Source: Candidatus Bilamarchaeaceae archaeon
Lineage (GTDB): Archaea > Micrarchaeota > Micrarchaeia > Anstonellales > Bilamarchaeaceae
NCBI GenBank assembly: GCA_038851325.1
Contig: JAWCKZ010000002.1
Coordinates: forward strand, 44,935-108,934
Direction: 5' to 3'
Length of the DNA: 64,000 nucleotides
Within the stretch, counting starts at the first letter, position 1; each line of letters starts with the position of its first letter. Positions 2,335 to 52,879 of the stretch are shown piece after piece. Position numbers and translations under genes: made by a program. The notes beneath the pieces were generated by a model. That model saw nothing but the letters and a program-made list of their open reading frames with translations. It was not told the origin of the DNA and made no database searches.

Positions 2335-2811
2335 CAGTCAACAGCGGAATATATCACAACTTACGGTTGGGCATTGTTTGCACTTGTGGTTGTTATTACT
2401 ATTATATTGGGCAGCGGAATGCTTACGCCGAACTTTTTAATATCCGAGAGGTGTGAGCTTGGTACAAATCTTCAATGCAGAGCCGCAGTTTATAATACTG
2501 ATGACCAGACAAAAATATCCCTGGAACTCCTAAATGGCTTCGCCTATAGAATACGAATTGTTTCAGTCGAGGTATTTCGTTCAGATGGCACTACATCCTT
2601 TAATGGTCTAAGCAGAGAGGTAACAATCGAAAGCGGGGACAAAGAAACGTTTATTGGTAGTTTCTCTGAGGGGCAGCTACCCAGCAACGAATTAGAGCAA
2701 TTTACAGTGAGGGTGAAGTACGCCTCCTGTGCGCCTGAACTTGGACCTGGCTGTGGCGATAATCATACAATAACAGGTAGAATAATAGCAAGGGTTATAC
2801 CATCAGGGTAA
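2290..2811 (+). CDS. Type IV pilin-like protein with class III signal peptide
   Basis: KG|QSTAEYITTYGWALFALVVVITIILG: basic leader, G-1, Q+1, E+5 and a hydrophobic helix; start could be any ATG from 2290 to 2326. Confidence 0.75.
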   Translation: MKTMRTMKAMRTMKGQSTAEYITTYGWALFALVVVITIILGSGMLTPNFLISERCELGTNLQCRAAVYNTDDQTKISLELLNGFAYRIRIVSVEVFRSDGTTSFNGLSREVTIESGDKETFIGSFSEGQLPSNELEQFTVRVKYASCAPELGPGCGDNHTITGRIIARVIPSG

Positions 2812-3339
2812 TCCACCTTCGATGACCTTCCCTCGCTCACTTGGTTTTATTCTCAATCTGCCCCCAAAGCGTTTGTCAAAATCACGCTCAAGCTGTTTGC
2901 CGCTTTTCAGTTTTTCGAGAAAGATAGCAAGTGCAGCAACTTCGCTGTGGGGCTGACTTGTTATTGCAATGTTAAAATCAGACACATCGTAAATCTCTTT
3001 TGGTACGCGCTCGCTCCCAACAATAATCAATAGATTTTCTGCTTTTTCGATGTTTTGAAACGCTTCTGGCAGAGGGACACCATACATTGTAAGATGAACG
3101 ATAGTAAATCCTTTCTCTTTGTATCCTTTTATCGCATTTAGATATTTCTCTTTATACTCGATGAAAAAATCACCTCCCCAACGCTGCGCAAGTCTTGAGA
3201 CACTTGATTCCAGGCCCGCATCGCGCTGGCCTGAGTAGTTCATCCCATCAGCACCGAATGCCCGTGCAACAAGAGCAACATGGGTTGTAATTCGCTCATC
3301 GCGCGGGAGCCTATGACTGAGTCGAAAGACAACAATCAT
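2803..3339 (-). CDS. trm56: tRNA (cytidine56-2'-O)-methyltransferase aTrm56
   Basis: RLSHRLPRDERITTHVALVARAFGA, VHLTMYG, IIVGSERVP, QPHSEVAALAIFL. Confidence 0.93.
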   Translation of the reverse strand: MIVVFRLSHRLPRDERITTHVALVARAFGADGMNYSGQRDAGLESSVSRLAQRWGGDFFIEYKEKYLNAIKGYKEKGFTIVHLTMYGVPLPEAFQNIEKAENLLIIVGSERVPKEIYDVSDFNIAITSQPHSEVAALAIFLEKLKSGKQLERDFDKRFGGRLRIKPSERGKVIEGGLP

Positions 3340-3343
3340 CGCA

Positions 3344-4471
3344 TCACTCAACGTGAATATGTTTTTTTCCTTTTAACCAAACAATAAACGGGTAAGTTAA
3401 TATAAGCAGCCCAAGCACCACGAACGGAATGAACATATTTGAGAACAAGATATAAAGACACAGCACTAGCACAATTCCTACCAATCTCCCGATGTTAAGT
3501 ATCAATTCTCTAGCGAGCATGACTTTGTCAATGTCTCTCTTGTTGTCCAGCAATATTGCAGTTGTGAAAGGATTAAATAGATTTATAAAAAAGTTTCTGC
3601 CCGCATTCGCTGTGAACCACAATGCTGCATTGCTTGCAAATCCTGTAAAGATGGTTATGAGTCCGAGCGCACTTCCAAACAAGATTATATAGACTCTTCG
3701 TTTTCTTACCTTATCTGAAAGTTTGCTAACAAAGAAGGACGCTATGATAGAAAAGATGGTAGTAATGGCAATGAAACCACCAAGTTCGAGCGGTTTGGTA
3801 AAAAAGAGCAACGTTACGATCGTGATTGCTGCTGTTGTCCCGCCTCCGTAAACGCCCTCCGTAAATATCAGCGTTCTAAAACCTTTTATTTCCTTTATAC
3901 CATCCGCCGCACTGTAACTGTATCCACGTTTTTTGATCGCCTTCAGCTCAAGAAAGATGATTAAGAACAGTAGCGCAGATAGGATGAAAAGTATTTGAAA
4001 TCCAAAAACCTCTGCTACTACCGCACTTGCGACAGGTAGCAGAAGTCCAAGAAAAGGAGACATCGAAAAATAAATGCTGCTCGAGGTTGCGGCTTGTTCC
4101 ACGCCTTGTTCAAAATACATGATATTAAACGGAACCCAAAAGAGAAGGCAAGTAAGTCCAAGAATAAAGGTGCTAAAAAATAGTAGCTCTTTTGTTGGTG
4201 GTAAAAGTGCAAGTGCGATATACGAGAGCGCCATGAGGAAAATTGCTATACCCATGTAGAATCTATGGTCGCCTTCCATTCTCTTATTTAAAAGAAGAAC
4301 GAGAAAAATTGCTGCTGCAGGCCAAAAAATAAAGGAAGTGAGCAAGTCAAAATTACTCATTCCTGCATGTTTGAAGTATAGATAAAGAAGGCTCCCAGAG
4401 AATACATTGGCACCAACCCACAGTGAATAGAGCAATAGCAGTCTTAGCAATTGTTCTTTTCCTCTCAGCAT
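3344..4471 (-). CDS. MFS transporter
   Basis: About 12 hydrophobic segments over ~375 aa in two-fold MFS organisation; SKLSDKVRKRR loop motif. Confidence 0.75.
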   Translation of the reverse strand: MLRGKEQLLRLLLLYSLWVGANVFSGSLLYLYFKHAGMSNFDLLTSFIFWPAAAIFLVLLLNKRMEGDHRFYMGIAIFLMALSYIALALLPPTKELLFFSTFILGLTCLLFWVPFNIMYFEQGVEQAATSSSIYFSMSPFLGLLLPVASAVVAEVFGFQILFILSALLFLIIFLELKAIKKRGYSYSAADGIKEIKGFRTLIFTEGVYGGGTTAAITIVTLLFFTKPLELGGFIAITTIFSIIASFFVSKLSDKVRKRRVYIILFGSALGLITIFTGFASNAALWFTANAGRNFFINLFNPFTTAILLDNKRDIDKVMLARELILNIGRLVGIVLVLCLYILFSNMFIPFVVLGLLILTYPFIVWLKGKKHIHVE

Positions 4472-8316: not shown

Positions 8317-8892
8317 ATGAATAAACCGGATTTTCATTTTCCTAAAATGCTCGAGAATCTGAAACGCGGAGGTCCTGCGATTGTTCTTCCAAAGGATGCA
8401 GGCATTGTGATAGCTTACAGCGGCATAGGAAGGAACTCAAAGGTTGTAGAGCTTGGTACCGGTTCTGGTTTTATGACCGTTCAGCTTGCGAACATTGCAA
8501 AGGAAGTGATTACTTACGAAAAAAGAAAAGAGTTTGCAGAGCTTGCTAAACAGAATATAAAGAAAGCAGGATTGGAGAACGTAACTCTGAAAGAGGCAGA
8601 TGCGCTTATTAACTTTGATGAAAGAGATGTAGACCTTGTTTTTTGTGATATCGCGGATGCTGAAAATGTGGTGGAGCGTGCCTATGCAGCGCTTAAGAAA
8701 GATGGAACATTTGCAGCGCACTGCTTGAACATAGAGCAGGCAAAGGCGCTTGTGCTTGCGCTGAGAGCAAATTTTAGAGATGTTTTTATGACCGAGTGCA
8801 TTGTTCGCGATTACGACATTCGCAGTTTTGGCACTAGGCCAAAGCATTTTGGGCTAATGCATACTGCCTATCTTGTTTTCGCTAGGAAATGA
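8317..8892 (+). CDS. trmI: tRNA (adenine57/58-N1)-methyltransferase TrmI
   Basis: GPAIVLPKDAGIV, VELGTGSG, TRPKHFGLMHTAYLVFARK. Confidence 0.9.
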   Translation: MNKPDFHFPKMLENLKRGGPAIVLPKDAGIVIAYSGIGRNSKVVELGTGSGFMTVQLANIAKEVITYEKRKEFAELAKQNIKKAGLENVTLKEADALINFDERDVDLVFCDIADAENVVERAYAALKKDGTFAAHCLNIEQAKALVLALRANFRDVFMTECIVRDYDIRSFGTRPKHFGLMHTAYLVFARK

Positions 8893-14623: not shown

Positions 14624-14694
14624 TAAATACCCCCCATTTATCCATTTTATGCATCAAAATTATTTTAAATGGTAATGGTGATAAAATCACATCG

Positions 14695-14751
14695 ATGATG
14701 ACAAAGGTGATCGCTGAGCCTTATGGCGATGAAGATTGACGTGCGGTCTGA
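14695..14751 (+). ncRNA. Box C/D methylation-guide sRNA
   Basis: C ATGATGA 14695-14701; 12-nt guide; D' CTGA 14714-14717; GCC-TTAT-GGC hairpin; C' ATGAAGA 14729-14735; 12-nt guide; D CTGA 14748-14751; intergenic. Confidence 0.85.
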
Positions 14752-15077
14752 AATAGTGCTTTAGTTTGTCAGAGCTAGGACTTCATTTGCTCGAATACTT
14801 TCACCCATACGATATTCGCAGCAAGGACAAAACTTCATAAATTTTGGCCTGTTTGGAAATTCGATAGAATTTACAATACAGGGACAAACAGCGCAACCGC
14901 GGCCAAATCCAAACTCGGGTCAAAATAATGTATTCCTGCCAACGTGTTTCTAAGAAGGTTCGCAGGGGGTATGAGTTACTCACAGGGAGTATGAGTAACT
15001 TTTAATACCTTATTGCACGCCGAAACGAACAACGGACACCTTCTTCAGCACGTAGAACAACCGGGTTGCTTGACTTC

Positions 15078-15440
15078 TCATCCTATTTGCTTCGCAACCA
15101 AAAACGAGGCTTTTAATAATAGCGGATCGGCTAAATAATACTTATTATTCTTCTTTTCTAAAAACGAACACCTTATGAGTTTGTTGAGTGCGAATGTAAA
15201 CAGATTAGAATCGAGCTGTTCTTTGAGTTCCTTGCCTGCCCTTACCCTAAGTTCATTCCAGCTTACTCCCGTCGCATTCTGTAAAATGCTCAGATAAAGT
15301 TTCTTATTCCTTGCTTTTGTAATTTTGTCTTTTACTTCATTTAAATGAAGTTTAGCGTGTTGCGTCCCTTGACGGTCTAGACCTTGGTGAGACCCTGCGC
15401 AAGGCCTCAAAATAGAGCGATACCGTTCTTCGAGGCACAT
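15078..15440 (-). pseudogene. C-terminal winged-helix fragment of an archaeal AAA ATP-binding protein
   Basis: YLSILQNATGVSWNELR...FTFALNKLIRCSFLEKKNNKYYLADPLL; no P-loop domain upstream. Confidence 0.5.
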
Positions 15441-15688
15441 TAAAGAAGAAAAACAGAATTTTGGAAGGCAAAACGGGACACCTCAGAACGCAAAACCAAC
15501 GTCCATCTAAATGGGACGTTCAGAGGGCCATAGAACTAGAACGCCGTTCCCGTATGGACAGCTGCAAGGTCAGCTGCGGCAAACGCGAGATGCGCAGAAC
15601 TGGAGATTGGAAACCATTCGTCGTTCCCGAGAGTTTATTAAATCTATTTCCATCCATATACTCGTCATATGTTTGTTAGGGTGGTTTC

Positions 15689-16099
15689 CTGAAATCGCAT
15701 ACTGAGTATCTCACATTCAATACACGAAATCGCATCGAATTCGTTCGCATAACCGAAAAGATACAGGACGCGATAAAGAGAAGCGGAGTGAAGGAAGGCA
15801 TCGTGCTCGTGAATCCTATGCATATTACAGCAGCGGTAATCGTGAACGATGACGAGGAGGGGCTAAAACGCGATTTTATCCGTGTTCTGCAAGGGCTCGT
15901 GCCTTACGAAGGTAGATACGAGCACAATGTAGGTGAAGACAACGCTGCTGCGCACATCTGGCGCCAGCTCATGGGCCATCAGGTTGTCATGCCCATAACA
16001 GATGGCAAGCTTGACCTCGGCCCGTGGGAGCAGATTTTTTACTGCGAGTTTGACGGTCAGCGAAGTAAGCGCGTTCTCGTAAAAATAATCGGTGAGTAA
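15689..16099 (+). CDS. yjbQ: YjbQ/UPF0047 family protein (secondary thiamine-phosphate synthase-like), probable CTG start
   Basis: [39 protein letters not shown]; frame extends upstream of the ORF-track GTG to CTG-AAA-TCG-CAT after AGGGTGGT. Confidence 0.9.
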
Positions 16100-19410: not shown

Positions 19411-20106
19411 ATGACGACGCTTGATAAAGCGATCATCGCTTCTTATGAGAAAGAGGGAAAGCGATTCGAGCTTTACGTAGATCCTGAGGCTGCGTATGCC
19501 TACAAGGAAGGACGGAAGCCAGACCTAAAGAATATACTTGTTGCAGAGGAGGTATACGAGAACGCAAAGAAGGGCGAGCGAGCAAAGGTATCAGATATCC
19601 AAAAGGTCTTCGGGACCACTGACATAATGAAGATTCTTGAGTTGGTGCTTAAGGAGGGAGAAGTACAGCTTACAACAGAGCAGAGAAGAAAAAAACAGGA
19701 GGAAAAGAGAAAACAGATAATTGCAATATTGGCAAGGGAGGCGATAGACCCGCGAACGAAGGCGCCCCATCCTCCACAAAGAATAGAGAGCGCGCTTGAG
19801 CAGGTGCGTATTCAGATAGACCCGTTTAAGGATGCAAGGGAGCAGATACCTGCGATAGTCAAAGAACTCATGCTTATACTTCCAATGAAGTTTGAGAAGG
19901 TAAAGGTGGCCGTGAAAATACCGCCGCAATATGCGCACCGGTGCTATGGAACAATAAAAAGCTATGGTATACAGAAAGAGCAGTGGCAGTCAGATGGCAG
20001 CCTTATTGTCGTTGTTGAAATCTTCGCAGGTGCGCAGGGAGAATTCTACGACAAGCTGAACAAGATGACTGCCGGCAGCGTCGAAACAAGGGTGCTTGAA
20101 GAGTGA
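19411..20106 (+). CDS. Ribosome maturation protein SBDS/Sdo1
   Basis: GKRFELYVDP, GEVQLTTEQRR, IDPRTKAPHPPQRIE. Confidence 0.95.
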   Translation: MTTLDKAIIASYEKEGKRFELYVDPEAAYAYKEGRKPDLKNILVAEEVYENAKKGERAKVSDIQKVFGTTDIMKILELVLKEGEVQLTTEQRRKKQEEKRKQIIAILAREAIDPRTKAPHPPQRIESALEQVRIQIDPFKDAREQIPAIVKELMLILPMKFEKVKVAVKIPPQYAHRCYGTIKSYGIQKEQWQSDGSLIVVVEIFAGAQGEFYDKLNKMTAGSVETRVLEE

Positions 20107-20756
20107 GAGAAATATTTTCTGGTGTTTGGGAAGAGGACCATGAGTTATTAACACAGAATCTTGTTCCAGGCAAAAAGGTGTATAATGAGCGATTACGCCG
20201 TGTCAGCGATAGGGAGTACAGAACATGGAATCCATACAGGAGCAAGCTCGCCGCTGCGCTGAAAAAAGGGCTGAGGACTTTTCCATTTGCAAAGAATGTA
20301 AAGGTCCTTTATCTTGGTGCGTCTACAGGAACTACTGTTTCCCATCTTTCAGATATAATAATCGAAGGAGAGGTATACGCTGTAGAGATTTCGCCTCAGG
20401 CAATGAAAAGCTTGCTTGCAGTAGCTGAGCACAGGGGAAATATAATTCCCATCCATGGAGACGCAAGAAAACCGCATGAATATAAAGAAGTCGGAAAGGT
20501 TGACGTGATTTATCAGGATGTCGCTCAGCCAGATCAAGATGAGATACTGATTGCAAATGCGAAGATGTTTCTGAAGAAAGACGGAATAGCAATGATTGCA
20601 ATAAAGAGCCAGAGCATAGATGTTACGCTTGAGCCGAAGAAAGTTTTCGAACGCGTGTTAAAGAAGCTGGCTGAGCATTTCGAAATCCTTGAAATGATAA
20701 AACTTGAGCCCTTTGACAAGGACCATCTTTTCGTTGTGCTGAGGTTTAAGGGCTGA
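20103..20756 (+). CDS. flpA: Fibrillarin-like rRNA/tRNA 2'-O-methyltransferase
   Basis: YRTWNPYRSKLAAA, VLYLGASTGTTVSHLSD, DVIYQDVAQPDQ, LEPFDKDH. Confidence 0.96.
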   Translation: MREIFSGVWEEDHELLTQNLVPGKKVYNERLRRVSDREYRTWNPYRSKLAAALKKGLRTFPFAKNVKVLYLGASTGTTVSHLSDIIIEGEVYAVEISPQAMKSLLAVAEHRGNIIPIHGDARKPHEYKEVGKVDVIYQDVAQPDQDEILIANAKMFLKKDGIAMIAIKSQSIDVTLEPKKVFERVLKKLAEHFEILEMIKLEPFDKDHLFVVLRFKG

Positions 20757-26997: not shown

Positions 26998-28353
26998 GTG
27001 AAGAGTATGAAATATTTCAAAACATTTATGGTGGATGCTGCAAAGCAGAAGAGTAAAGGCCCTACTGCTAACCATAAACTAAACAAATTGTATGTTCAGC
27101 ACGAAGGGTTGCTTACCACTCAAAACAACGTACAACCATCGCCAAGGGGGCGTAATGTAACCGTACATGGTCCACTAAAAATTGCTTTGGAGGAGTTTGC
27201 GCCAGACGCCGAAAGCTACGACTCTCTACGATGTATAACCAGGTTCGCAAGCGAGGACTTTAGTAGTCTTTCGGAGTACCTATTTACAGTGCTCAAAAAA
27301 GCCTTTGAAGGCGTGGTGAGATGCTCCATCTATCTTGCCGAAGAGGTAGGAACCAGGAGCAGTTTCAAAACAATCCTCTCGCATTATCTGACTATTAACA
27401 TGAATGGAAATGTAAGAACAAGTTCGTTGGACAAGGGAAGCAGAATATCAGATAAGAGCGATCCTATTTTGAAGGCTTATCTGGATAAAAAACCCAGGTT
27501 TATAGATTATCGCGCGGGCATGGACCTGATTTTCAAGAATCTTAATTATGAAAACAAAGACTGTGATGTGTACGTAAGAGAACCTAACATCCTTAAAGAT
27601 GATGTTGCGTTGATACCATTTTATTACAGGGAAAGGGATAAACTTCGCGGTGTGATGGTACTGGAAGGAAACCTCAAGTGTAAAAATTCGGCAAAATGTG
27701 GTTTTGGGAAAGCATTCTATTTTATGATGGCAGCTACAGCACTCGGCGCCCAAGTTGGTTTTATATCAATGCAAAAATACGATCACACAACCGCGCTGTA
27801 TAAAAAAAGCGATTTTGAGATAGACCTAAAAACATTAATTCGCAGATTGTTAAAAGCACAAAAGCGTGGTGCGCAAAAGAACGCTATTATCCTTCTCGTA
27901 GACCTTGATAATTTTAAGGCGGTCAATGAGCATTATGGATATTTAGCTGGGGACGCTCTTCTTAGTAATATAGCAAAAGCGATAAAGAACTCCGTGCGCA
28001 GGCCCACACAAAACAGAAAATCAGACATTATAGCCAGATGGGGCGGGGAGGAGTTCGCTATTCTTCTTGAGGATATAGATGAAGAAAATGCAATCAAAAT
28101 AGCCAACCGAATCAGGGACGAGGTGGCCAAGGCAAAGATAAAAGTTGACGAAAAAGAGATAAGAGTAACATGCAGCATAGGCCTTCTTAATATCGAGAAA
28201 GCTTTGGCGACAGATAAGAGAACAGGTGTGGATGAAGCAGCAAAAAATGTTTTTAATAAATGCAACACCCTTCTCAAATCTGTTAAAAGCAACGGAAAGA
28301 ATGGAATAGCGTTTGTTTCAGAGGGCAATGGTGTGGAGCTGATACGCGGATAG
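26998..28353 (+). CDS. GAF-like + GGDEF domain protein (diguanylate cyclase-like)
   Basis: YDHTTALY, LLVDLDNFKAVNEHYGYLAGDALL, RKSDIIARWGGEEF, VTCSIG, VKSNGKN. Confidence 0.92.
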   Translation: MKSMKYFKTFMVDAAKQKSKGPTANHKLNKLYVQHEGLLTTQNNVQPSPRGRNVTVHGPLKIALEEFAPDAESYDSLRCITRFASEDFSSLSEYLFTVLKKAFEGVVRCSIYLAEEVGTRSSFKTILSHYLTINMNGNVRTSSLDKGSRISDKSDPILKAYLDKKPRFIDYRAGMDLIFKNLNYENKDCDVYVREPNILKDDVALIPFYYRERDKLRGVMVLEGNLKCKNSAKCGFGKAFYFMMAATALGAQVGFISMQKYDHTTALYKKSDFEIDLKTLIRRLLKAQKRGAQKNAIILLVDLDNFKAVNEHYGYLAGDALLSNIAKAIKNSVRRPTQNRKSDIIARWGGEEFAILLEDIDEENAIKIANRIRDEVAKAKIKVDEKEIRVTCSIGLLNIEKALATDKRTGVDEAAKNVFNKCNTLLKSVKSNGKNGIAFVSEGNGVELIRG

Positions 28354-36567: not shown

Positions 36568-37455
36568 ATGCTAGATGCACCTCCCAAAAGCGAGAGACAA
36601 CTTATTTTGGAGGCAGCAGTGGAGGTCATCAAAAAACAAGGACTTAGATCGGAATTGATAGGGAGCAAGAAATTTTCAGAATACTTTTTTAAGGGTGTTA
36701 TGCTATTCAATGTTCTTGGTGACGGATGCACAAGAAACTGCAGGTTCTGCGTTATAAAGTACAAAAAAAAGCCTGATAAGCCTTCGCTTGATGAAGGAAA
36801 AAGAATAGCCGCTGTTTCTCAAAAACTTGGATTAAGGTATATTGTTCTTTCGCCCGTAGCAAGGGACGACCTTGCAGATGGCGGTGCATCCTACCTTGCA
36901 TCCTACATAAGAGATATAAAAAAGATAAATCCGAATGTGAAGGTTGAGACGTTTATTCCAGATTACGGTAAAAAACACCTTATAAAAATGGTGGTCGACG
37001 CTGGGCCAGACGTAATATCATACAGTCTAGACACGATCAAGCGGCTATATTCTGTCGTGAAGGGAAGCGAGTTTGATTTTGAGAGGAGCATAAGGACAGT
37101 CCGCACGATTAGAGAGTTGAGCAAGGACATACCCATCAGGGCAACCATAATGGTTGGGTTTAGAGAAAGTTGGTTTGAGGTAATAGGCGCATTAAGACGA
37201 TTGCGTAAGGCGGGCGTGGATATGATAACGATAAGCCAATACTATAGGCCAACAAAGAACCATATTCAGGTTCTTGAGTATGTACCGGTGGAAAGGTTCG
37301 AGTTGTATGAAAGAGAGGCATATCAACTTGGTTATAAACATGTTAAGATTCAATCTGGCAAGCCTATTGAGTATAGCGATTATATCCTACCAGAATTTAT
37401 TTCTTCTGTACAACGAAAGCCTCTAGGACCTTTTCGTAAGGAGCATCAGTTTTAA
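36568..37455 (+). CDS. Lipoyl synthase (LipA)-like radical SAM protein lacking auxiliary cluster motifs
   Basis: LGDGCTRNCRFC, VARDDLADGGA, VETFIPDY, ITISQYYRP; no CX4CX5C and no RSSY. Confidence 0.85.
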   Translation: MLDAPPKSERQLILEAAVEVIKKQGLRSELIGSKKFSEYFFKGVMLFNVLGDGCTRNCRFCVIKYKKKPDKPSLDEGKRIAAVSQKLGLRYIVLSPVARDDLADGGASYLASYIRDIKKINPNVKVETFIPDYGKKHLIKMVVDAGPDVISYSLDTIKRLYSVVKGSEFDFERSIRTVRTIRELSKDIPIRATIMVGFRESWFEVIGALRRLRKAGVDMITISQYYRPTKNHIQVLEYVPVERFELYEREAYQLGYKHVKIQSGKPIEYSDYILPEFISSVQRKPLGPFRKEHQF

Positions 37456-38485
37456 CAGCAGTTGGAGAAAAATGGGTTCTTGCGGCTTTGTAGCCAATCG
37501 AATTTAAGAAATCAAGAACATCGTTCATCTTCGGCACGCTTCCTCGCGAAATAAACTTTGAGATTCTATGAAGATCATAAAAATATGGTGGCATCCCAAT
37601 CTCTTGTTCCATAAGCTCTAATTTATTATGTATCTCTTCTCTGTGACCGTACCCTCTCTTTTCATTTAATTTTTTCATTTCTCTGAGAATATTTATATCG
37701 TGGAGCTCTCCGAGCCAAAGCGGTCCTGCGTACTCAATATTTTTATTGCAGACCTTGCACCACTCCGTTGGAAAGCGCACTGCTCTCCTGAAGCCACAAT
37801 GTGGGCAGTACTCGACATAACCAAGACGTGCAAGCGCGTTGTTTGCTTTCTCTGCCCCCCTTGTTACCTTTACTACAGTTTTTAAATAATGTCTATCAGA
37901 GATCGAAAGAAGAGGTATCGTTCCCATGTTAAATTCGGCACCTACTTCGGCTATCTTTTTTATCAAAATCCTGAGACCGTTTTCGTGCGTGCATTCATTG
38001 TTCAGCGGCTTTGCATGATAGTTTTTCATACACGGCTTTGTTTTTCCGCCGCACAGAACAGCAGTGTCTGTTGCTGTGACTGAAAGATATCCCTGCTTAA
38101 GGGGATTAAAGATTCTGAAAACATCATAGAGATACGGAGATGGTGTCCCAAACGGGTCAACCTCGACAAAATCAGCGGTTATGTCGAAAACAAGTCTTGA
38201 GATGTTCCCATGGAGTACAGAGAATTTTATTTTGTTTTTCCTTGCATTTTTTCTTGCACATGCCACGGCCGCTTTATTCACATCAACAAATATAGTGCGC
38301 CTTACATTATCATTTTCGATGGCATATCGTATGCCCCGTATGCCAGTTGCTGCAAATCCGTCGCACACAATGATTTTTTCCGCCAATGCACCGATCAAAA
38401 GCGAAACAATGCTGCGACAGAACGTCATTTCTTTATTGTAAAAAACCCCCTTCGGTGCGTTAAACACCACTCCCTCCTCCATCAT
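37397..38485 (-). CDS. trm1: tRNA (guanine26-N2)-dimethyltransferase
   Basis: VFYNKEM, DGFAATGIRGIRY, VDPFGTPSPY, TATDTAVLCG, YAGPLWLG, RTHFSP. Confidence 0.95.
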   Translation of the reverse strand: MMEEGVVFNAPKGVFYNKEMTFCRSIVSLLIGALAEKIIVCDGFAATGIRGIRYAIENDNVRRTIFVDVNKAAVACARKNARKNKIKFSVLHGNISRLVFDITADFVEVDPFGTPSPYLYDVFRIFNPLKQGYLSVTATDTAVLCGGKTKPCMKNYHAKPLNNECTHENGLRILIKKIAEVGAEFNMGTIPLLSISDRHYLKTVVKVTRGAEKANNALARLGYVEYCPHCGFRRAVRFPTEWCKVCNKNIEYAGPLWLGELHDINILREMKKLNEKRGYGHREEIHNKLELMEQEIGMPPYFYDLHRISKFISRGSVPKMNDVLDFLNSIGYKAARTHFSPTAVKTDAPYEKVLEAFVVQKK

Positions 38486-39707
38486 TTTTATCCCTATCCA
38501 AAAATTCTCTAAGAGCCGCGGTTGCATAGGCCCCTGATTGGAGCGAGAATGTGAATGTGTTGTTATAAAATGAGAAGTCTTTTAATGGTGAGAGCAGCGT
38601 ACGGTGTGTTCCTTTTGAGGATATCTCTGGTATGGCCTTTATTTTGAAATCACGCGGTTTTATATCAAACATCTCAAGAATTCTTTTTTCACGCTCGTTC
38701 ACCTTTGTTTCATACCCTATCATCTTTCCTGCAATCCATCTTGAATGACTTTCCTGCTTCTTTATGTCAGGAAAGCCACCCGTCTCTCCGCAATAGTATT
38801 CTCCTTCTTCGAGTTTGTTGAGCGCTCCTTCAGCAATTCTTTCTGATAGGGCAAGGTTGAAGATGTGCGACTGGAATGCGTGAACGAACAAAAGAAGGAT
38901 GCGTCTCGGTAGTTTTCTAAGAGCACCAGCATAGTCCCTTGGATAGACAGCAAGATGTGTAAGAAGCGCTCTCTCAAGGTGCAAATACTTTGGAAACTCC
39001 TTAAGTGCTTTCTTAAAGTCCCCTGTTTCTCGTAGATTTTTTCTTGCTAATATTGCTAGTTCGTTTGTTTCCCCTTTGCATTCACAGAGAAATTCAAGTG
39101 CCGCCAAATCGTGCCTCCCCTTTGCAAGGTACTCTCCGAGTTTGTGAGTATTTCGCCTGCTTGAACCAAACCTTTGAGGCCCAAAATAGTTAGGGAAGAC
39201 GCCATTCAATTCTTTATAAATCACTTCCACAGCGTTTTTTTCGTTAGGATTCTGTCCATGTACAACTATCTTGAAACGGTTTCCCAGAAGACTGCCCAAT
39301 CTCGTTTTATCAGATGAGCTCCACGCGCCGAGTATCTTTATATCCTTGAGATTAAGCGAGAGCAATTTCTCCTTGCTAATTCCGAAAACAGAAACAAGTT
39401 GAGTAGAAATAGCATTCTTATCCTTCGTACCTGCATAACTGAATCGCTTTGCACTGATGCGAAGTTCATCCGCTATTCTCCTTATTGCCCCCTCGCTTGT
39501 CCATTCCCTCTTTTGAAGTATGAAATGCGTGAAATTTCCTTCTGTCCCAGCGCGTGTGAAGGTCTTGTCCTTCTCCAGTATTGTTCCGTCTTCAAGTATT
39601 TCCTCAACTATGAAATCATCCGGTGTTTTCTTTATTCTTCCACCAATTCCAGGGGTCTTTGAAAGGTAAGAAAGAAAATGGTCTTTCTCTGGCAAATCCT
39701 CACTCAT
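38460..39707 (-). CDS. truD: tRNA pseudouridine13 synthase
   Basis: DDFIVEEI, SYAGTKDKNAISTQ, LLGNRF, PNYFGPQRFG, GAYAT. Confidence 0.96.
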   Translation of the reverse strand: MSEDLPEKDHFLSYLSKTPGIGGRIKKTPDDFIVEEILEDGTILEKDKTFTRAGTEGNFTHFILQKREWTSEGAIRRIADELRISAKRFSYAGTKDKNAISTQLVSVFGISKEKLLSLNLKDIKILGAWSSSDKTRLGSLLGNRFKIVVHGQNPNEKNAVEVIYKELNGVFPNYFGPQRFGSSRRNTHKLGEYLAKGRHDLAALEFLCECKGETNELAILARKNLRETGDFKKALKEFPKYLHLERALLTHLAVYPRDYAGALRKLPRRILLLFVHAFQSHIFNLALSERIAEGALNKLEEGEYYCGETGGFPDIKKQESHSRWIAGKMIGYETKVNEREKRILEMFDIKPRDFKIKAIPEISSKGTHRTLLSPLKDFSFYNNTFTFSLQSGAYATAALREFLDRDKNDGGGSGV

Positions 39708-39825: not shown

Positions 39826-41226
39826 CTATGACCCCATTTTTTCTGTCTTTGTTTTTCTGTCTTTGTTGCGGACCATGTGGATGATCGATTTATAAGACTG
39901 GAAGAGTGAATTAACAAGGGTTTGATTTCCGCCCAGATAGTAATGATGCGCCGCACCCCCCTCCTCAGCTATCTGATGCCACTCCTTTGTTTTCAGCTGC
40001 ACTTCAAATCGCAGCAATCTCGAGGTGAGAACATCCTCGGGTTCGGTGTCGTAATGGAACGCCTTATAACCATTTTCAGGTTTGACTTTGAACTCTGGAG
40101 TGCATTTTTTGTAAAGCACGCCAGGGGTTGTATTTAGTCCGCATAAATTTGATTCTATTACTGCCTTTGCCAATTCCAGAGCTCTCCCCTTTGCGTCTTC
40201 TTCCATCTTGTCTACCTCAATCCCATGTAGTTTGTTGATGATAACGCGGAGCGCTACAAGGTCATTAAGTTTTGCAATGTCGTAGTATTGAATAATCGAT
40301 CTTATATATTTGTTTAGTTTTTCTTCATTTTCCTCAGAACTCTCGTTATGACCAACATGTAGACGCTTAAACTCATCCACCAATCTTCTATATATCTTGC
40401 GCATTATTTTCCCTTCATGTTTTTTCATTCTTGGTGCAACAATCGCATCTGTGAAGCCTTGGACTCTTAACGTTTGCCTGATCCGTCTTGCAAGATCTTT
40501 GACAATGTTTTGCGTTGTATGCAGGCGTTCCGTAAGCCCGGTTTCATTCATTTTTTCCATTACATATTCGTATATCTCTCTGTGGTTTATCTTAAATGCG
40601 TGGAGAAGAATATCTCCTGCTAGGGATGGATATCCAAAAAATTCTGCCAGCGGGGCGTAGATTTTCTCCCCTGCTGTTGCGTCCCTTTTTAGAGAGTTTT
40701 CTGCATCCGATTGAGAATCGTAAAGCCTGAATATAGAACAACCATTGTTGTTAATGACATCATTTGTTCTTTGGCTTGTTGTGTGCGTGACAGCGACATC
40801 AACTATTCGCGGCAGCAAAGCCAATGGAGCTGGTTTGTTATCATTAAGTAAAGGAATATAACTCTCCAGCGGAGCACCAGCGCGATCAAGATTTCTCAAC
40901 TGACAGAATATTCTGAGTTCGTCGACTATTGCTCTTTCTTCTAGCATTTGAAGGATGGAAGGGTCCAAGCATTTAACCTTATCATAATCTATCATGTGAT
41001 AAAGTACAATCTCTGTAATCCGGTGATTCAGTTCAGCCCTTTCTGGATCTTTTTTGTAGTGTTTTATTGCACTTCCATTCACCATCTTTACTTCTTCAGC
41101 CTTTTTCATGACTTCAAGGCAGTGTTGGTAGAGCTGCATAGCATTTTTTTTGAAATAAAAATTCCTAGCTGTTAGTATACTGGATTGAAGGGATGGTAAT
41201 TTTTTTCTAGTTCGTATAAATTCCAT
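39826..41226 (-). CDS. RelA/SpoT homologue: degenerate HD domain + synthetase domain, no C-terminal regulatory domains
   Basis: KIYAPLAEFFG, PRMKKH...RK, NDLVALRVII, KPENGYKAFH, FEVQLKTKEWHQIAEEGGAAHHYY. Confidence 0.85.
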   Translation of the reverse strand: MEFIRTRKKLPSLQSSILTARNFYFKKNAMQLYQHCLEVMKKAEEVKMVNGSAIKHYKKDPERAELNHRITEIVLYHMIDYDKVKCLDPSILQMLEERAIVDELRIFCQLRNLDRAGAPLESYIPLLNDNKPAPLALLPRIVDVAVTHTTSQRTNDVINNNGCSIFRLYDSQSDAENSLKRDATAGEKIYAPLAEFFGYPSLAGDILLHAFKINHREIYEYVMEKMNETGLTERLHTTQNIVKDLARRIRQTLRVQGFTDAIVAPRMKKHEGKIMRKIYRRLVDEFKRLHVGHNESSEENEEKLNKYIRSIIQYYDIAKLNDLVALRVIINKLHGIEVDKMEEDAKGRALELAKAVIESNLCGLNTTPGVLYKKCTPEFKVKPENGYKAFHYDTEPEDVLTSRLLRFEVQLKTKEWHQIAEEGGAAHHYYLGGNQTLVNSLFQSYKSIIHMVRNKDRKTKTEKMGS

Positions 41227-51083: not shown

Positions 51084-51713
51084 ATGAAGGATAAATTTAG
51101 TATACCTGTCATTATGCTGTCGCTGTGTTTACTTTTGCTAGGTTGCATTACTCTTGGTGGAGTGGAAAAGCCAATAGAAACTCAACCTGAAACCATCCCG
51201 CAGCAGTGCAGGGTAGTGACGGAGCAAATACCATATCTTGAAGAGGTTTGCAGAGAGGAGATGCACGGAAGGGAGGAATGCGAATATAAAGAGCTTCCCT
51301 TTGTGGTAAGCCAAGTTGAGGAAATCGATTTGTGTATGGAAGGGGATTCCTGTTCCGGAAAGCCTCTTGGCGAATGCATCTCAAGATGCACCAAGGCAAT
51401 GAAGAGATGCAAAATGAACATAACAAACTTGGATACCAGACATAGTGGGGTATGGAGTGTTGGTGCTACATTTACGCAGGGAAAAAATTCTTTCATTAAA
51501 AATCCAGAGAGTGCAGAGATACTGCCGGGTAGAACGCATACATTTGATTTCACACAGATTTACTCTCTTGGAATTCCATCGACAAGCGCCACATGCTCGC
51601 TCTACGTCCTTACAAACGCATCTGTAAGAGACTGCAAGACTGTTAGTAGACCAGTGACCGTATGCGAAAATGTAACCAAAGTTAGAGAAGAGCAAAGAGT
51701 TGTTTGCGGATAG
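51084..51713 (+). CDS. Cys-rich putative lipoprotein
   Basis: Lipobox-like LLLLGC; more than 10 Cys in the mature part. Confidence 0.7.
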   Translation: MKDKFSIPVIMLSLCLLLLGCITLGGVEKPIETQPETIPQQCRVVTEQIPYLEEVCREEMHGREECEYKELPFVVSQVEEIDLCMEGDSCSGKPLGECISRCTKAMKRCKMNITNLDTRHSGVWSVGATFTQGKNSFIKNPESAEILPGRTHTFDFTQIYSLGIPSTSATCSLYVLTNASVRDCKTVSRPVTVCENVTKVREEQRVVCG

Positions 51714-51733
51714 GAAGCATGCAGGAGGAGCTG

Positions 51734-52879
51734 ATGGGGACTGGCACGATTGGACAGGATGTGCTAACTATCCACATCGGTGAGGTTGCGCTCAAAGGAA
51801 AAAATAGAAGAGATTTTGAAAGGCAACTCTTCGCAAACATAAAAGCAAAAATACCAGATGCGCATATGATACGAGCGGACGGGAGATTCATTCTTGAAAC
51901 AAAGAACTTAGACGCTGCGCTTGGTAAATTGGGGAAGATATTTGGGATATCCTGGTTCTCTAAGTCAGTGGTGCTCCCACCTGATGTGGACGGTATTGCA
52001 AAAGAGATCGCAGAAAGAATCGGGAATGAGCGGGTAAAAATCGAAACAAGACGCGTGGATAAGAGATTTCCAAAAACGTCCGTGGAGATAAGTAAAGAGA
52101 TTGCAGGTCGGATTGCCGCACTTGGAAAAAATCCGGTTGTGCGGGACTATGAGCGTATCGTTCTTATCGAGATTCTGCGCGATATGGCTATTATTACATT
52201 TGAGAGAAATGAAGGTGCAGGTGGGCTACCGTATGGCTCGAGCGGAAGACTTCTGTCGCTTCTCTCAGGTGGGATAGACTCGCCGGTTGCGGCATGGCTT
52301 ATGATGAGTAGAGGTTGTGAGCTTGAATTTTTGCACGTTCACGCGCAGCCGTCCAGTGAGGCTGTGAAGAAATCTAAAATAACCGCGCTTGTCAGCCGCC
52401 TTGCGGAATATGCACCAAACGCTCTTACTCTACATCTTGCGCCATATGAGGAGTTTTACAACGCATCCTCCAAAGTGCCCTCCCGCGAGGAGCTTATAGT
52501 CTTCAGAAAATTTCTCTTCCGTTTAGCAGATAGGATTGCACAAAAATCAAACGCTCTCGGAATAGTTTCCGGAGACAGCGTTGGGCAGGTAGCTTCCCAA
52601 ACACTTCACAATCTTGCTGCGGTCAATAGCGCCGCCCACCTGCCGATATACCGGCCGCTTGTTGGTATGGATAAGGAGCGGATAATCGAGATTGCAAAGA
52701 AAATAGGGACCTATGAAATCTCTGTTCAGCCATACAAGGATTGTTGTTCATTGGTCGCAGAGCGTCATCCAACAACGCGTGCAAGATCGGAGAGAATAGA
52801 GGTTATAGAAAAAAAGATAGATATTGAGAACATAATAGAGAAAACAGTAAAAAAGATTGAGACCATTCATATTGGTTAA
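51734..52879 (+). CDS. thiI: tRNA 4-thiouridine synthase ThiI
   Basis: GEVALKGKNR, THUMP domain, LLSGGIDSPVA, GQVASQT, YRPLVGMDK, DCCS. Confidence 0.95.
   Translation: MGTGTIGQDVLTIHIGEVALKGKNRRDFERQLFANIKAKIPDAHMIRADGRFILETKNLDAALGKLGKIFGISWFSKSVVLPPDVDGIAKEIAERIGNERVKIETRRVDKRFPKTSVEISKEIAGRIAALGKNPVVRDYERIVLIEILRDMAIITFERNEGAGGLPYGSSGRLLSLLSGGIDSPVAAWLMMSRGCELEFLHVHAQPSSEAVKKSKITALVSRLAEYAPNALTLHLAPYEEFYNASSKVPSREELIVFRKFLFRLADRIAQKSNALGIVSGDSVGQVASQTLHNLAAVNSAAHLPIYRPLVGMDKERIIEIAKKIGTYEISVQPYKDCCSLVAERHPTTRARSERIEVIEKKIDIENIIEKTVKKIETIHIG

Follow-up and report, generated by a model that had tools for sequence, protein, structure and literature searches.

A box C/D guide RNA gene of a Bilamarchaeaceae archaeon whose two guides are predicted to target the 3' end of 16S rRNA

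The functionally closest known system to the locus described here is Neq sR13 of Nanoarchaeum equitans, which belongs to the sRNA set of Dennis et al. 2015 (PMC4644070). Its two guides cover 16S rRNA positions 1405-1415 (Am1408) and 1531-1540 (Am1534), and its RNP has been proposed to control when helices h44 and h45 fold in this organism, which lacks RsmA/Dim1 (Seistrup et al., NAR 2017, PMC5389701). The RNA that we describe is likewise a C/D sRNA of a DPANN archaeon, with one guide complementary to the h44 decoding strand and the other to the anti-Shine-Dalgarno (anti-SD) tail, and its RNP, like that of sR13, would span h44, h45, and the 3' end. In contrast, the arms are swapped (in sR13 the D' guide takes 1405-1415 and the D guide 1531-1540, whereas here the D guide takes 1398-1409 and the D' guide 1530-1537), and the predicted target nucleotides are C1402 and C1533 rather than those of Am1408 and Am1534. 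There is no detectable sequence homology between the two RNAs, and the phylum here is Micrarchaeota. In the literature that we searched, we found no description of C/D sRNAs of Micrarchaeota.

Methylation at the predicted D-guide target is known from many organisms. Cm at the equivalent of position 1402 has been reported for E. coli (RsmI), yeast, human, plants, and Pyrococcus abyssi, where it is Cm1369 (PMC11542601, Tables 1 and 2). It is also found in the 16S rRNA of N. equitans, without an assignable guide, and Iho sR11 could guide Cm1402 in Ignicoccus hospitalis (PMC5389701). The initial annotation of this stretch of DNA had noted the wide conservation of C1402 2'-O-methylation, a mark of all three domains. 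The modification for which the D guide of Iho sR11 has been proposed (PMC5389701) and Cm1369 of P. abyssi (PMC11542601) are the same archaeal, fibrillarin-dependent mark that we predict here. In I. hospitalis, methylation at the C1402 equivalent is <50%, and a U opposite C1403 is a feature of the present guide. The same decoding-site cytidine is served in Arabidopsis by the C/D guide AtU43 (18S Cm1645; PMC11542601). In contrast to the present RNA, snoRNAs of the U43 type are eukaryotic, longer, and nucleolar, they work with the Nop56/Nop58 paralogues, and their second guide is not aimed at the 3' tail. Counterparts of this type are yeast snR70, for Cm1639, and human SNORD43, for Cm1703. Bacterial RsmI (with RsmH, giving m4Cm1402) places the same mark on the same nucleotide, but both enzymes are proteins that act alone and need no guide RNA (PMC5053481, PMC2831307). 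Finally, Pyrococcus sR2, sR44, sR41, and others in Rfam have the same box architecture and length, whereas their guides are unrelated and their scores on the present RNA are far under the gathering thresholds.

The host is an uncultured hot-spring member of the Bilamarchaeaceae (Micrarchaeota, DPANN) represented by a MAG, and the window that we analysed is a 64,000-nt (64-kb) stretch of one of its contigs. The topoisomerase VI-B of the window is identical to a protein recorded under 'Candidatus Bilamarchaeaceae archaeon', and the relatives of this protein carry the name Micrarchaeota. This species occurs in two NCBI MAGs, of which GCA_038870055.1 is identical across the sRNA region, and in four hot-spring metagenome runs at 6-9x depth. 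The sRNA is surrounded by archaeal genes, which include those for topoisomerase VI A and B, a UbiA-type DGGGP synthase, SBDS, fibrillarin, aTrm56, Trm1, TruD, and ribosomal proteins with EF-2. Fibrillarin is encoded at the distance of 5 kb that had been noted initially (Table 1). Its upstream neighbour is SBDS and not Nop5, the usual archaeal partner, and neither Nop5 nor L7Ae is encoded in the 64-kb window. There are no rRNA or tRNA genes across the window (Rfam; ARAGORN for tRNA).

A strict C/D motif scan of both strands of the window returned a single candidate, 14695-14751, and a relaxed scan in which box mismatches were allowed again returned this candidate alone. In dinucleotide-preserving shuffles of the window, the same motif occurs on average 0.02 times (n=100). 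The candidate is 57 nt long and reads ATGATGA-CAAAGGTGATCG-CTGA-GCCTTATGGCG-ATGAAGA-TTGACGTGCGGT-CTGA on the plus strand; its elements and the genes that we refer to are listed in Table 1. Both guide spacers measure exactly 12 nt, as initially annotated, and the description of the boxes as textbook holds for C, D', and D, which are exact, but not for C', which deviates at one position. Spacers of ~12 nt and a length of ~50-70 nt are the norm for archaeal C/D sRNAs (PMC7229835), and the candidate falls within it.

Table 1. Elements of the sRNA gene and selected genes of the window (positions are those of the 64-kb window)
Feature	Position	Strand	Remarks
Putative promoter, TATA-like TTTTAAAT	14663..14670	+	~25-30 nt 5' of box C
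Box C AUGAUGA	14695..14701	+	exact RUGAUGA
D' guide CAAAGGUGAUCG, 12 nt	14702..14713	+	positions 2-9 vs 16S G1530-U1537; N+5 = C1533 (predicted)
Box D' CUGA	14714..14717	+	exact consensus
D'-C' spacer GCCUUAUGGCG, 11 nt	14718..14728	+	3-bp hairpin GCC/GGC, -4.6 kcal/mol (RNAfold)
Box C' AUGAAGA	14729..14735	+	one deviation from RUGAUGA
D guide UUGACGUGCGGU, 12 nt	14736..14747	+	vs 16S A1398-A1409 save U14742/C1403; N+5 = C1402 (predicted)
Box D CUGA	14748..14751	+	exact consensus
Putative termination signal, T-rich TTTAGTTT	14760..14767	+	9 nt 3' of box D
aTrm56	2803-3351		tRNA modification
SBDS	19411-20106		just before fibrillarin; 4-nt overlap
Fibrillarin, C/D sRNP methyltransferase	20103..20756	+	Pfam PF01269, 3.6e-86; 5.35 kb downstream of sRNA
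Trm1	37397-38527		tRNA modification
TruD	38460-39707		tRNA modification
ThiI	51704-52879		tRNA modification

At the gathering score, Rfam matched nothing anywhere in the window. In a permissive Rfam search, 14691-14753 gave weak matches, all of them to archaeal (Pyrococcus) C/D families, the best being sR2 (RF01139) with 20.7 bits against a gathering threshold of 42 (E=0.039), which places the sRNA outside every curated Rfam C/D family. A scan of genome contigs for TGACGNGCGGTCTGA (14 specified bases) gave, among the matches listed, chance bacterial ones and 0 C/D sRNAs, and scans of viral contigs for the sRNA gave no match. In the study's one metatranscriptome (run X5), which is not a small-RNA library, sRNA words are at 0.00; the organism is at 6-9x in the DNA runs.

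A diverged relative of the sRNA comes from hot-spring metagenome run X4, in which a second contig (2,959 nt, depth 6.3) aligns to 14694-14751 and nowhere else in the window. Its flanks are both unlike those of the window, and the alignment stops exactly at the end of box D (14751). Within the block there are 3 substitutions and 7 inserted letters, all of which fall within 14715-14726, that is, in the D'-C' spacer. The reconstructed longer spacer would form a 7-bp hairpin, provided that the 3 unplaced substitutions fall elsewhere. An A/T-rich TTATTAATATTT lies ~19-30 nt upstream of the conserved block, and the octamer TTTAGTTT recurs 8 nt past box D, despite the otherwise dissimilar 3' flank. 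Boxes and guides appear to be kept in this relative and the spacer and flanks to be freer, which is the conservation that is looked for in archaeal C/D sRNAs. Based on the complete anatomy, the uniqueness of the motif in the window, and the C-to-D block alone being kept in the X4 relative, we conclude with high confidence that 14695-14751 is a genuine box C/D sRNA gene, which is the identity originally assigned to it.

Other relatives add to this picture. A strain variant in run X4 has 4 SNPs and a 2-nt deletion across 451 nt around the sRNA and 0 changes inside it, which is weak evidence of conservation when taken alone, the sRNA being just 57 nt. A 197-nt low-depth contig from run X1 has two sRNA-like copies, seemingly tandem and ~120 nt apart. 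One aligns with 14695-14735 and differs at 5 positions; the other is identical to 14696-14715 (20 nt, comprising box C, the D' guide, and CU) and is divergent past box D'. Since box C and the D' guide are common to both copies, it seems that more than one gene has retained this D' guide. At the syntenic loci of relatives with 78-82% TopoVI-B and 60-62% UbiA identity there is no copy of the sRNA, and the gene order shared with the closest relatives ends precisely at the sRNA. A contig of a Micrarchaeota MAG (624-638 and 1936-1950) carries twice a ~40-nt repeat that starts with TGACGTGCGGTCTGA, a 15-mer of the D guide plus box D. Because there is no box C upstream, we regard this repeat as a chance resemblance.

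Targets were searched in a Haladaptatus operon, whose 16S, 23S, and 5S rRNAs were confirmed by Rfam, and in a Hadesarchaeon operon, both of which are heterologous references and not the host's own rRNA. The reverse complement of the D guide is ACCGCACGTCAA, and the canonical archaeal 16S sequence in Haladaptatus and the Hadesarchaeon is ACCGCCCGTCAA. In the Haladaptatus 16S, 23S, and 5S rRNAs together, the best site of the D guide is ACCGCCCGUCAA of the 16S rRNA (E. coli 1398-1409), with 11 of 12 positions in Watson-Crick pairs. The sole mismatch is U14742 (guide position 6) against C1403, and N+5 is opposite C1402. The target site in the Hadesarchaeon 16S rRNA is identical. Match, mismatch, and target nucleotide are those of the initial annotation. 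For random 12-mers taken from the window, an 11/12 match somewhere in the 4.5 kb of heterologous rRNA has P=0.008, and the mismatched duplex is predicted to have -15.7 kcal/mol at 37 C. Inside the window, there is no site with 0-1 mismatch apart from the sRNA gene.

The target-prediction rules in use accept one mismatch and two G·U pairs, and for double guides they relax the 9-bp minimum (PMC4644070). Duplexes of C/D guides with up to 10 bp form, position 1 is unpaired, and substrates with 9-10 bp are methylated efficiently (PMC7229835). Under these published pairing rules, Cm1402 on canonical 16S rRNA is an acceptable prediction for the D guide. Judging from complementarity, it most likely directs Cm1402 with the U·C mismatch at 1403 tolerated. 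The mismatch immediately adjoins the target nucleotide, and this may reduce activity.

The D' guide contains AGGTGATC, which forms 8 contiguous pairs with GAUCACCU in the tail of heterologous 16S rRNA (guide positions and N+5 nucleotide are given in Table 1), in agreement with the complementarity to the 16S 3' tail that had been pointed out before. Random 12-mers of the window form 8 contiguous pairs (guide positions 2-11) in the last 200 nt of heterologous 16S rRNA with P=0.008. With 8 bp, which is under the usual 9-bp criterion, the D' guide is borderline, and from its pairing it most likely addresses the anti-SD tail at C1533. That both guides of one RNA fall in the same small 16S domain by chance is very unlikely, with the qualification that this test was framed after the data were seen. 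Against conserved archaeal 16S rRNA, the sRNA reads as a double guide from h44 to the 3' tail, with one mismatch (D) and 8 bp (D'). The initial annotation had proposed that a single sRNA touches both h44 and the anti-SD end, and this arrangement is statistically nonrandom and has a precedent in Neq sR13 (PMC5389701).

As to the tail of the host itself, GGTGA is enriched upstream of predicted starts in the window (16 versus 2.5 expected), and GGAGGT is absent (0 versus 0.5 expected). The enrichment of AAGGTG is no greater than that of its core, so the Shine-Dalgarno motifs do not discriminate between CCUCC and CCUUU in the 16S tail.

Our main reading, to which we give a probability of roughly 55%, is that the 57-nt sRNA has its own transcript, that its D guide directs Cm1402 with a tolerated U·C mismatch and its D' guide acts on C1533, and that it may in addition clamp h44 and the tail. 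The sRNA would be transcribed alone from the TATA-like box ~27 nt upstream and would end at the T-rich tract. By the known mechanism, L7Ae would bind the C/D and C'/D' kink-turns, with the short spacer hairpin as the C'/D' stem, and a Nop5 dimer and two fibrillarins would complete the sRNP. The D guide would then anneal to 1398-1409 at the top of helix 44, where its sixth nucleotide, a U, would form a tolerated U·C mismatch with C1403, and C1402 would enter the fibrillarin active site to give Cm1402, the mark conserved in three domains. The D' guide would pair with GAUCACCU (1530-1537), where C1533 would be the methylated nucleotide. Since the predicted binding sites of the two guides lie in the 3' minor domain, ~130 nt from each other, the sRNP may in addition tether h44 to the anti-SD tail in late 30S assembly, a role proposed for Neq sR13. 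If this reading is confirmed, Micrarchaeota would have a C/D guide for the universally conserved Cm1402, and this RNA would be part of a second, independently built sRNP, after that of Nanoarchaeum sR13, that grips both the h44 decoding strand and the anti-SD tail. Such bridging is relevant to the proposal that guide RNPs set the timing of the final small-subunit folding steps in reduced-genome archaea.

The main rival to a D guide for Cm1402, which we consider unlikely, is that its true target is another host RNA with an exact ACCGCACGUCAA or ACCGCGCGUCAA, such as a tRNA, a pre-rRNA spacer, or a lineage-specific part of 23S or 16S rRNA, and that the 11/12 match to the decoding site is coincidental. 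A mismatch adjoining the target nucleotide would be unusual for a functional guide, many archaeal sRNA guides are without a known target (PMC4644070), the window is without rRNA and tRNA genes, and the pairing was scored on heterologous rRNA. A coincidence would, however, have to account for an 11/12 match that is reached anywhere in 4.5 kb of rRNA with P=0.008 and for a second guide that independently lands in the same 200-nt domain with the same P of 0.008. In addition, the nucleotide that the D guide selects is a known conserved Cm (PMC5389701, PMC11542601), and the window offers no 0-1-mismatch site beyond the gene itself.

We think it less probable again that the RNP is mainly an assembly chaperone or checkpoint, keeping the 5' strand of h44 and the 3' tail clamped up to a late stage of 30S maturation, with the mismatch easing release or blocking methylation. 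The binding of both guides to the 3' minor domain is consistent with such a role, for which there are a precedent and a rationale (PMC5389701), and double guides with one non-methylating arm have been described (PMC4644070). On the other hand, the case described as blocking methylation is a mismatch at the target nucleotide itself, which is not where the present mismatch lies. Moreover, the absence of RsmA/Dim1 is central to the N. equitans proposal, whereas the search here covered the 64-kb window of the genome; it has no full KsgA/Dim1, and a partial RrnaAD match (residues 39-97) falls on a generic 191-aa SAM-methyltransferase (8317-8892). The chaperone role is itself a hypothesis.

A further reading takes the mismatch at face value and follows the hint of A1403 that the initial annotation had raised. 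The 16S rRNA of this lineage would have a purine at 1403 (A, or G by wobble with U), the Cm1402 guide would have coevolved, with its U at guide position 6, for full 12/12 pairing, and the decoding site would differ from the universal ACCGCCCGUC. The U would pair with A or G, and the predicted duplex would gain ~5 kcal/mol. DPANN rRNAs are fast-evolving, which also favors a variant. To our knowledge, however, C1403 is near-universal, which weighs against one. The D guide can be explained without a variant rRNA, since the prediction criteria in use accept a single mismatch that is not at the target nucleotide (PMC4644070).

We looked for such a variant in JGI metagenome contigs with the pattern TTGYACACACCGC[A/G/T]CGTCAA, which has a non-C nucleotide at 1403 and a fixed 5' flank. 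The scan gave 13 matches, 9 of them in Rfam-recognised SSU rRNA genes, and one more (L141) resembles part of a 16S gene but has no Rfam call. With one exception, these SSU contigs are bacterial-type, and in the bacterial-type contigs position 1403 is U (L135, L136, L138, and L143), A (L139, L140, and L141), or G (L144 and L147). These contigs count in favor of a variant at 1403, with sequencing error as a possible source of the differences. L135 and L136 are similar contigs that both have U1403 and may mark a real lineage; L139 has further oddities that suggest errors.

The sole archaeal match is JGI contig Ga0080004_1057476 (L142), which has G1403 at 26 nt from the contig end. Its 3' end, CUCGAUCACCUCCA, forms 9 pairs with the D' guide, and its G1403 would wobble with the guide U. 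We rejected it as a match to both guides (G1403 plus CGAUCACCU), as the neighbouring MinD gene points to a Hadesarchaea-like organism, which is the wrong lineage. Position 1403 is C in two other, independent assemblies of this organism, so G1403 in L142 is an assembly error. All three Hadesarchaea-like assemblies have an unusual C at 1529 (…GCGGCUCGAUCACCUCCA). The Hadesarchaea-like 23S gene is ~3.9 kb long and has a LAGLIDADG homing-endonuclease ORF (contig L151, 11674-12153), and the presence of this ORF inside the gene indicates an rRNA intron.

The JGI scan thus gave no genuine archaeal-type 16S rRNA with a non-C nucleotide at 1403, in a collection that includes close relatives of the host (82% TopoVI-B identity). 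The power of this negative is limited, as metagenome assemblies often lack rRNA and the 5' flank of the pattern was fixed. The organism accounts for ~0.05% of 16S depth in the source metagenomes, and assembled contigs, when aligned to rRNA references, shatter at conserved k-mers. A variant decoding site has no support so far, and we regard a purine at 1403 as improbable. If it were true, a near-universal P-site nucleotide would have a natural variant, one that also escapes the 1391R/1392R primers.

Least probable by our estimate is that short box-like motifs stand in this order between genes by chance and that no RNA is made from them: the subthreshold Rfam scores and the empty count in a metatranscriptome that is not a small-RNA library would fit it, but the motif is expected 0.02 times per window, the exact C-to-D block is conserved in a diverged relative with indels in the spacer only, and both guides match (heterologous) 16S rRNA. 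We conclude that the locus encodes a genuine archaeal box C/D guide RNA of an ordinary kind, both of whose guides point, by predicted pairing, to the 3' end of 16S rRNA.

The surroundings of the sRNA have some further features. In the ~1 kb between the sRNA and YjbQ (14752-15787), no gene is called in the MAG annotation, and permissive E-value searches of 14740-15800 with Rfam gave nothing. This gap has a 120-aa ORF without a Pfam match (15078-15440, minus strand). Just 3' of the sRNA, 14822-14880 (~59 nt) is also matched by a separate 134-nt contig with 8 differences, found at 4-6x depth in runs X1, X2, and X3, and is either a conserved or a repeated element. Farther away, the window encodes a GGDEF-domain protein (26998-28353) and a RelA/SpoT-region protein (39826-41226), which are nucleotide second-messenger enzymes of a kind not expected in a small DPANN genome.
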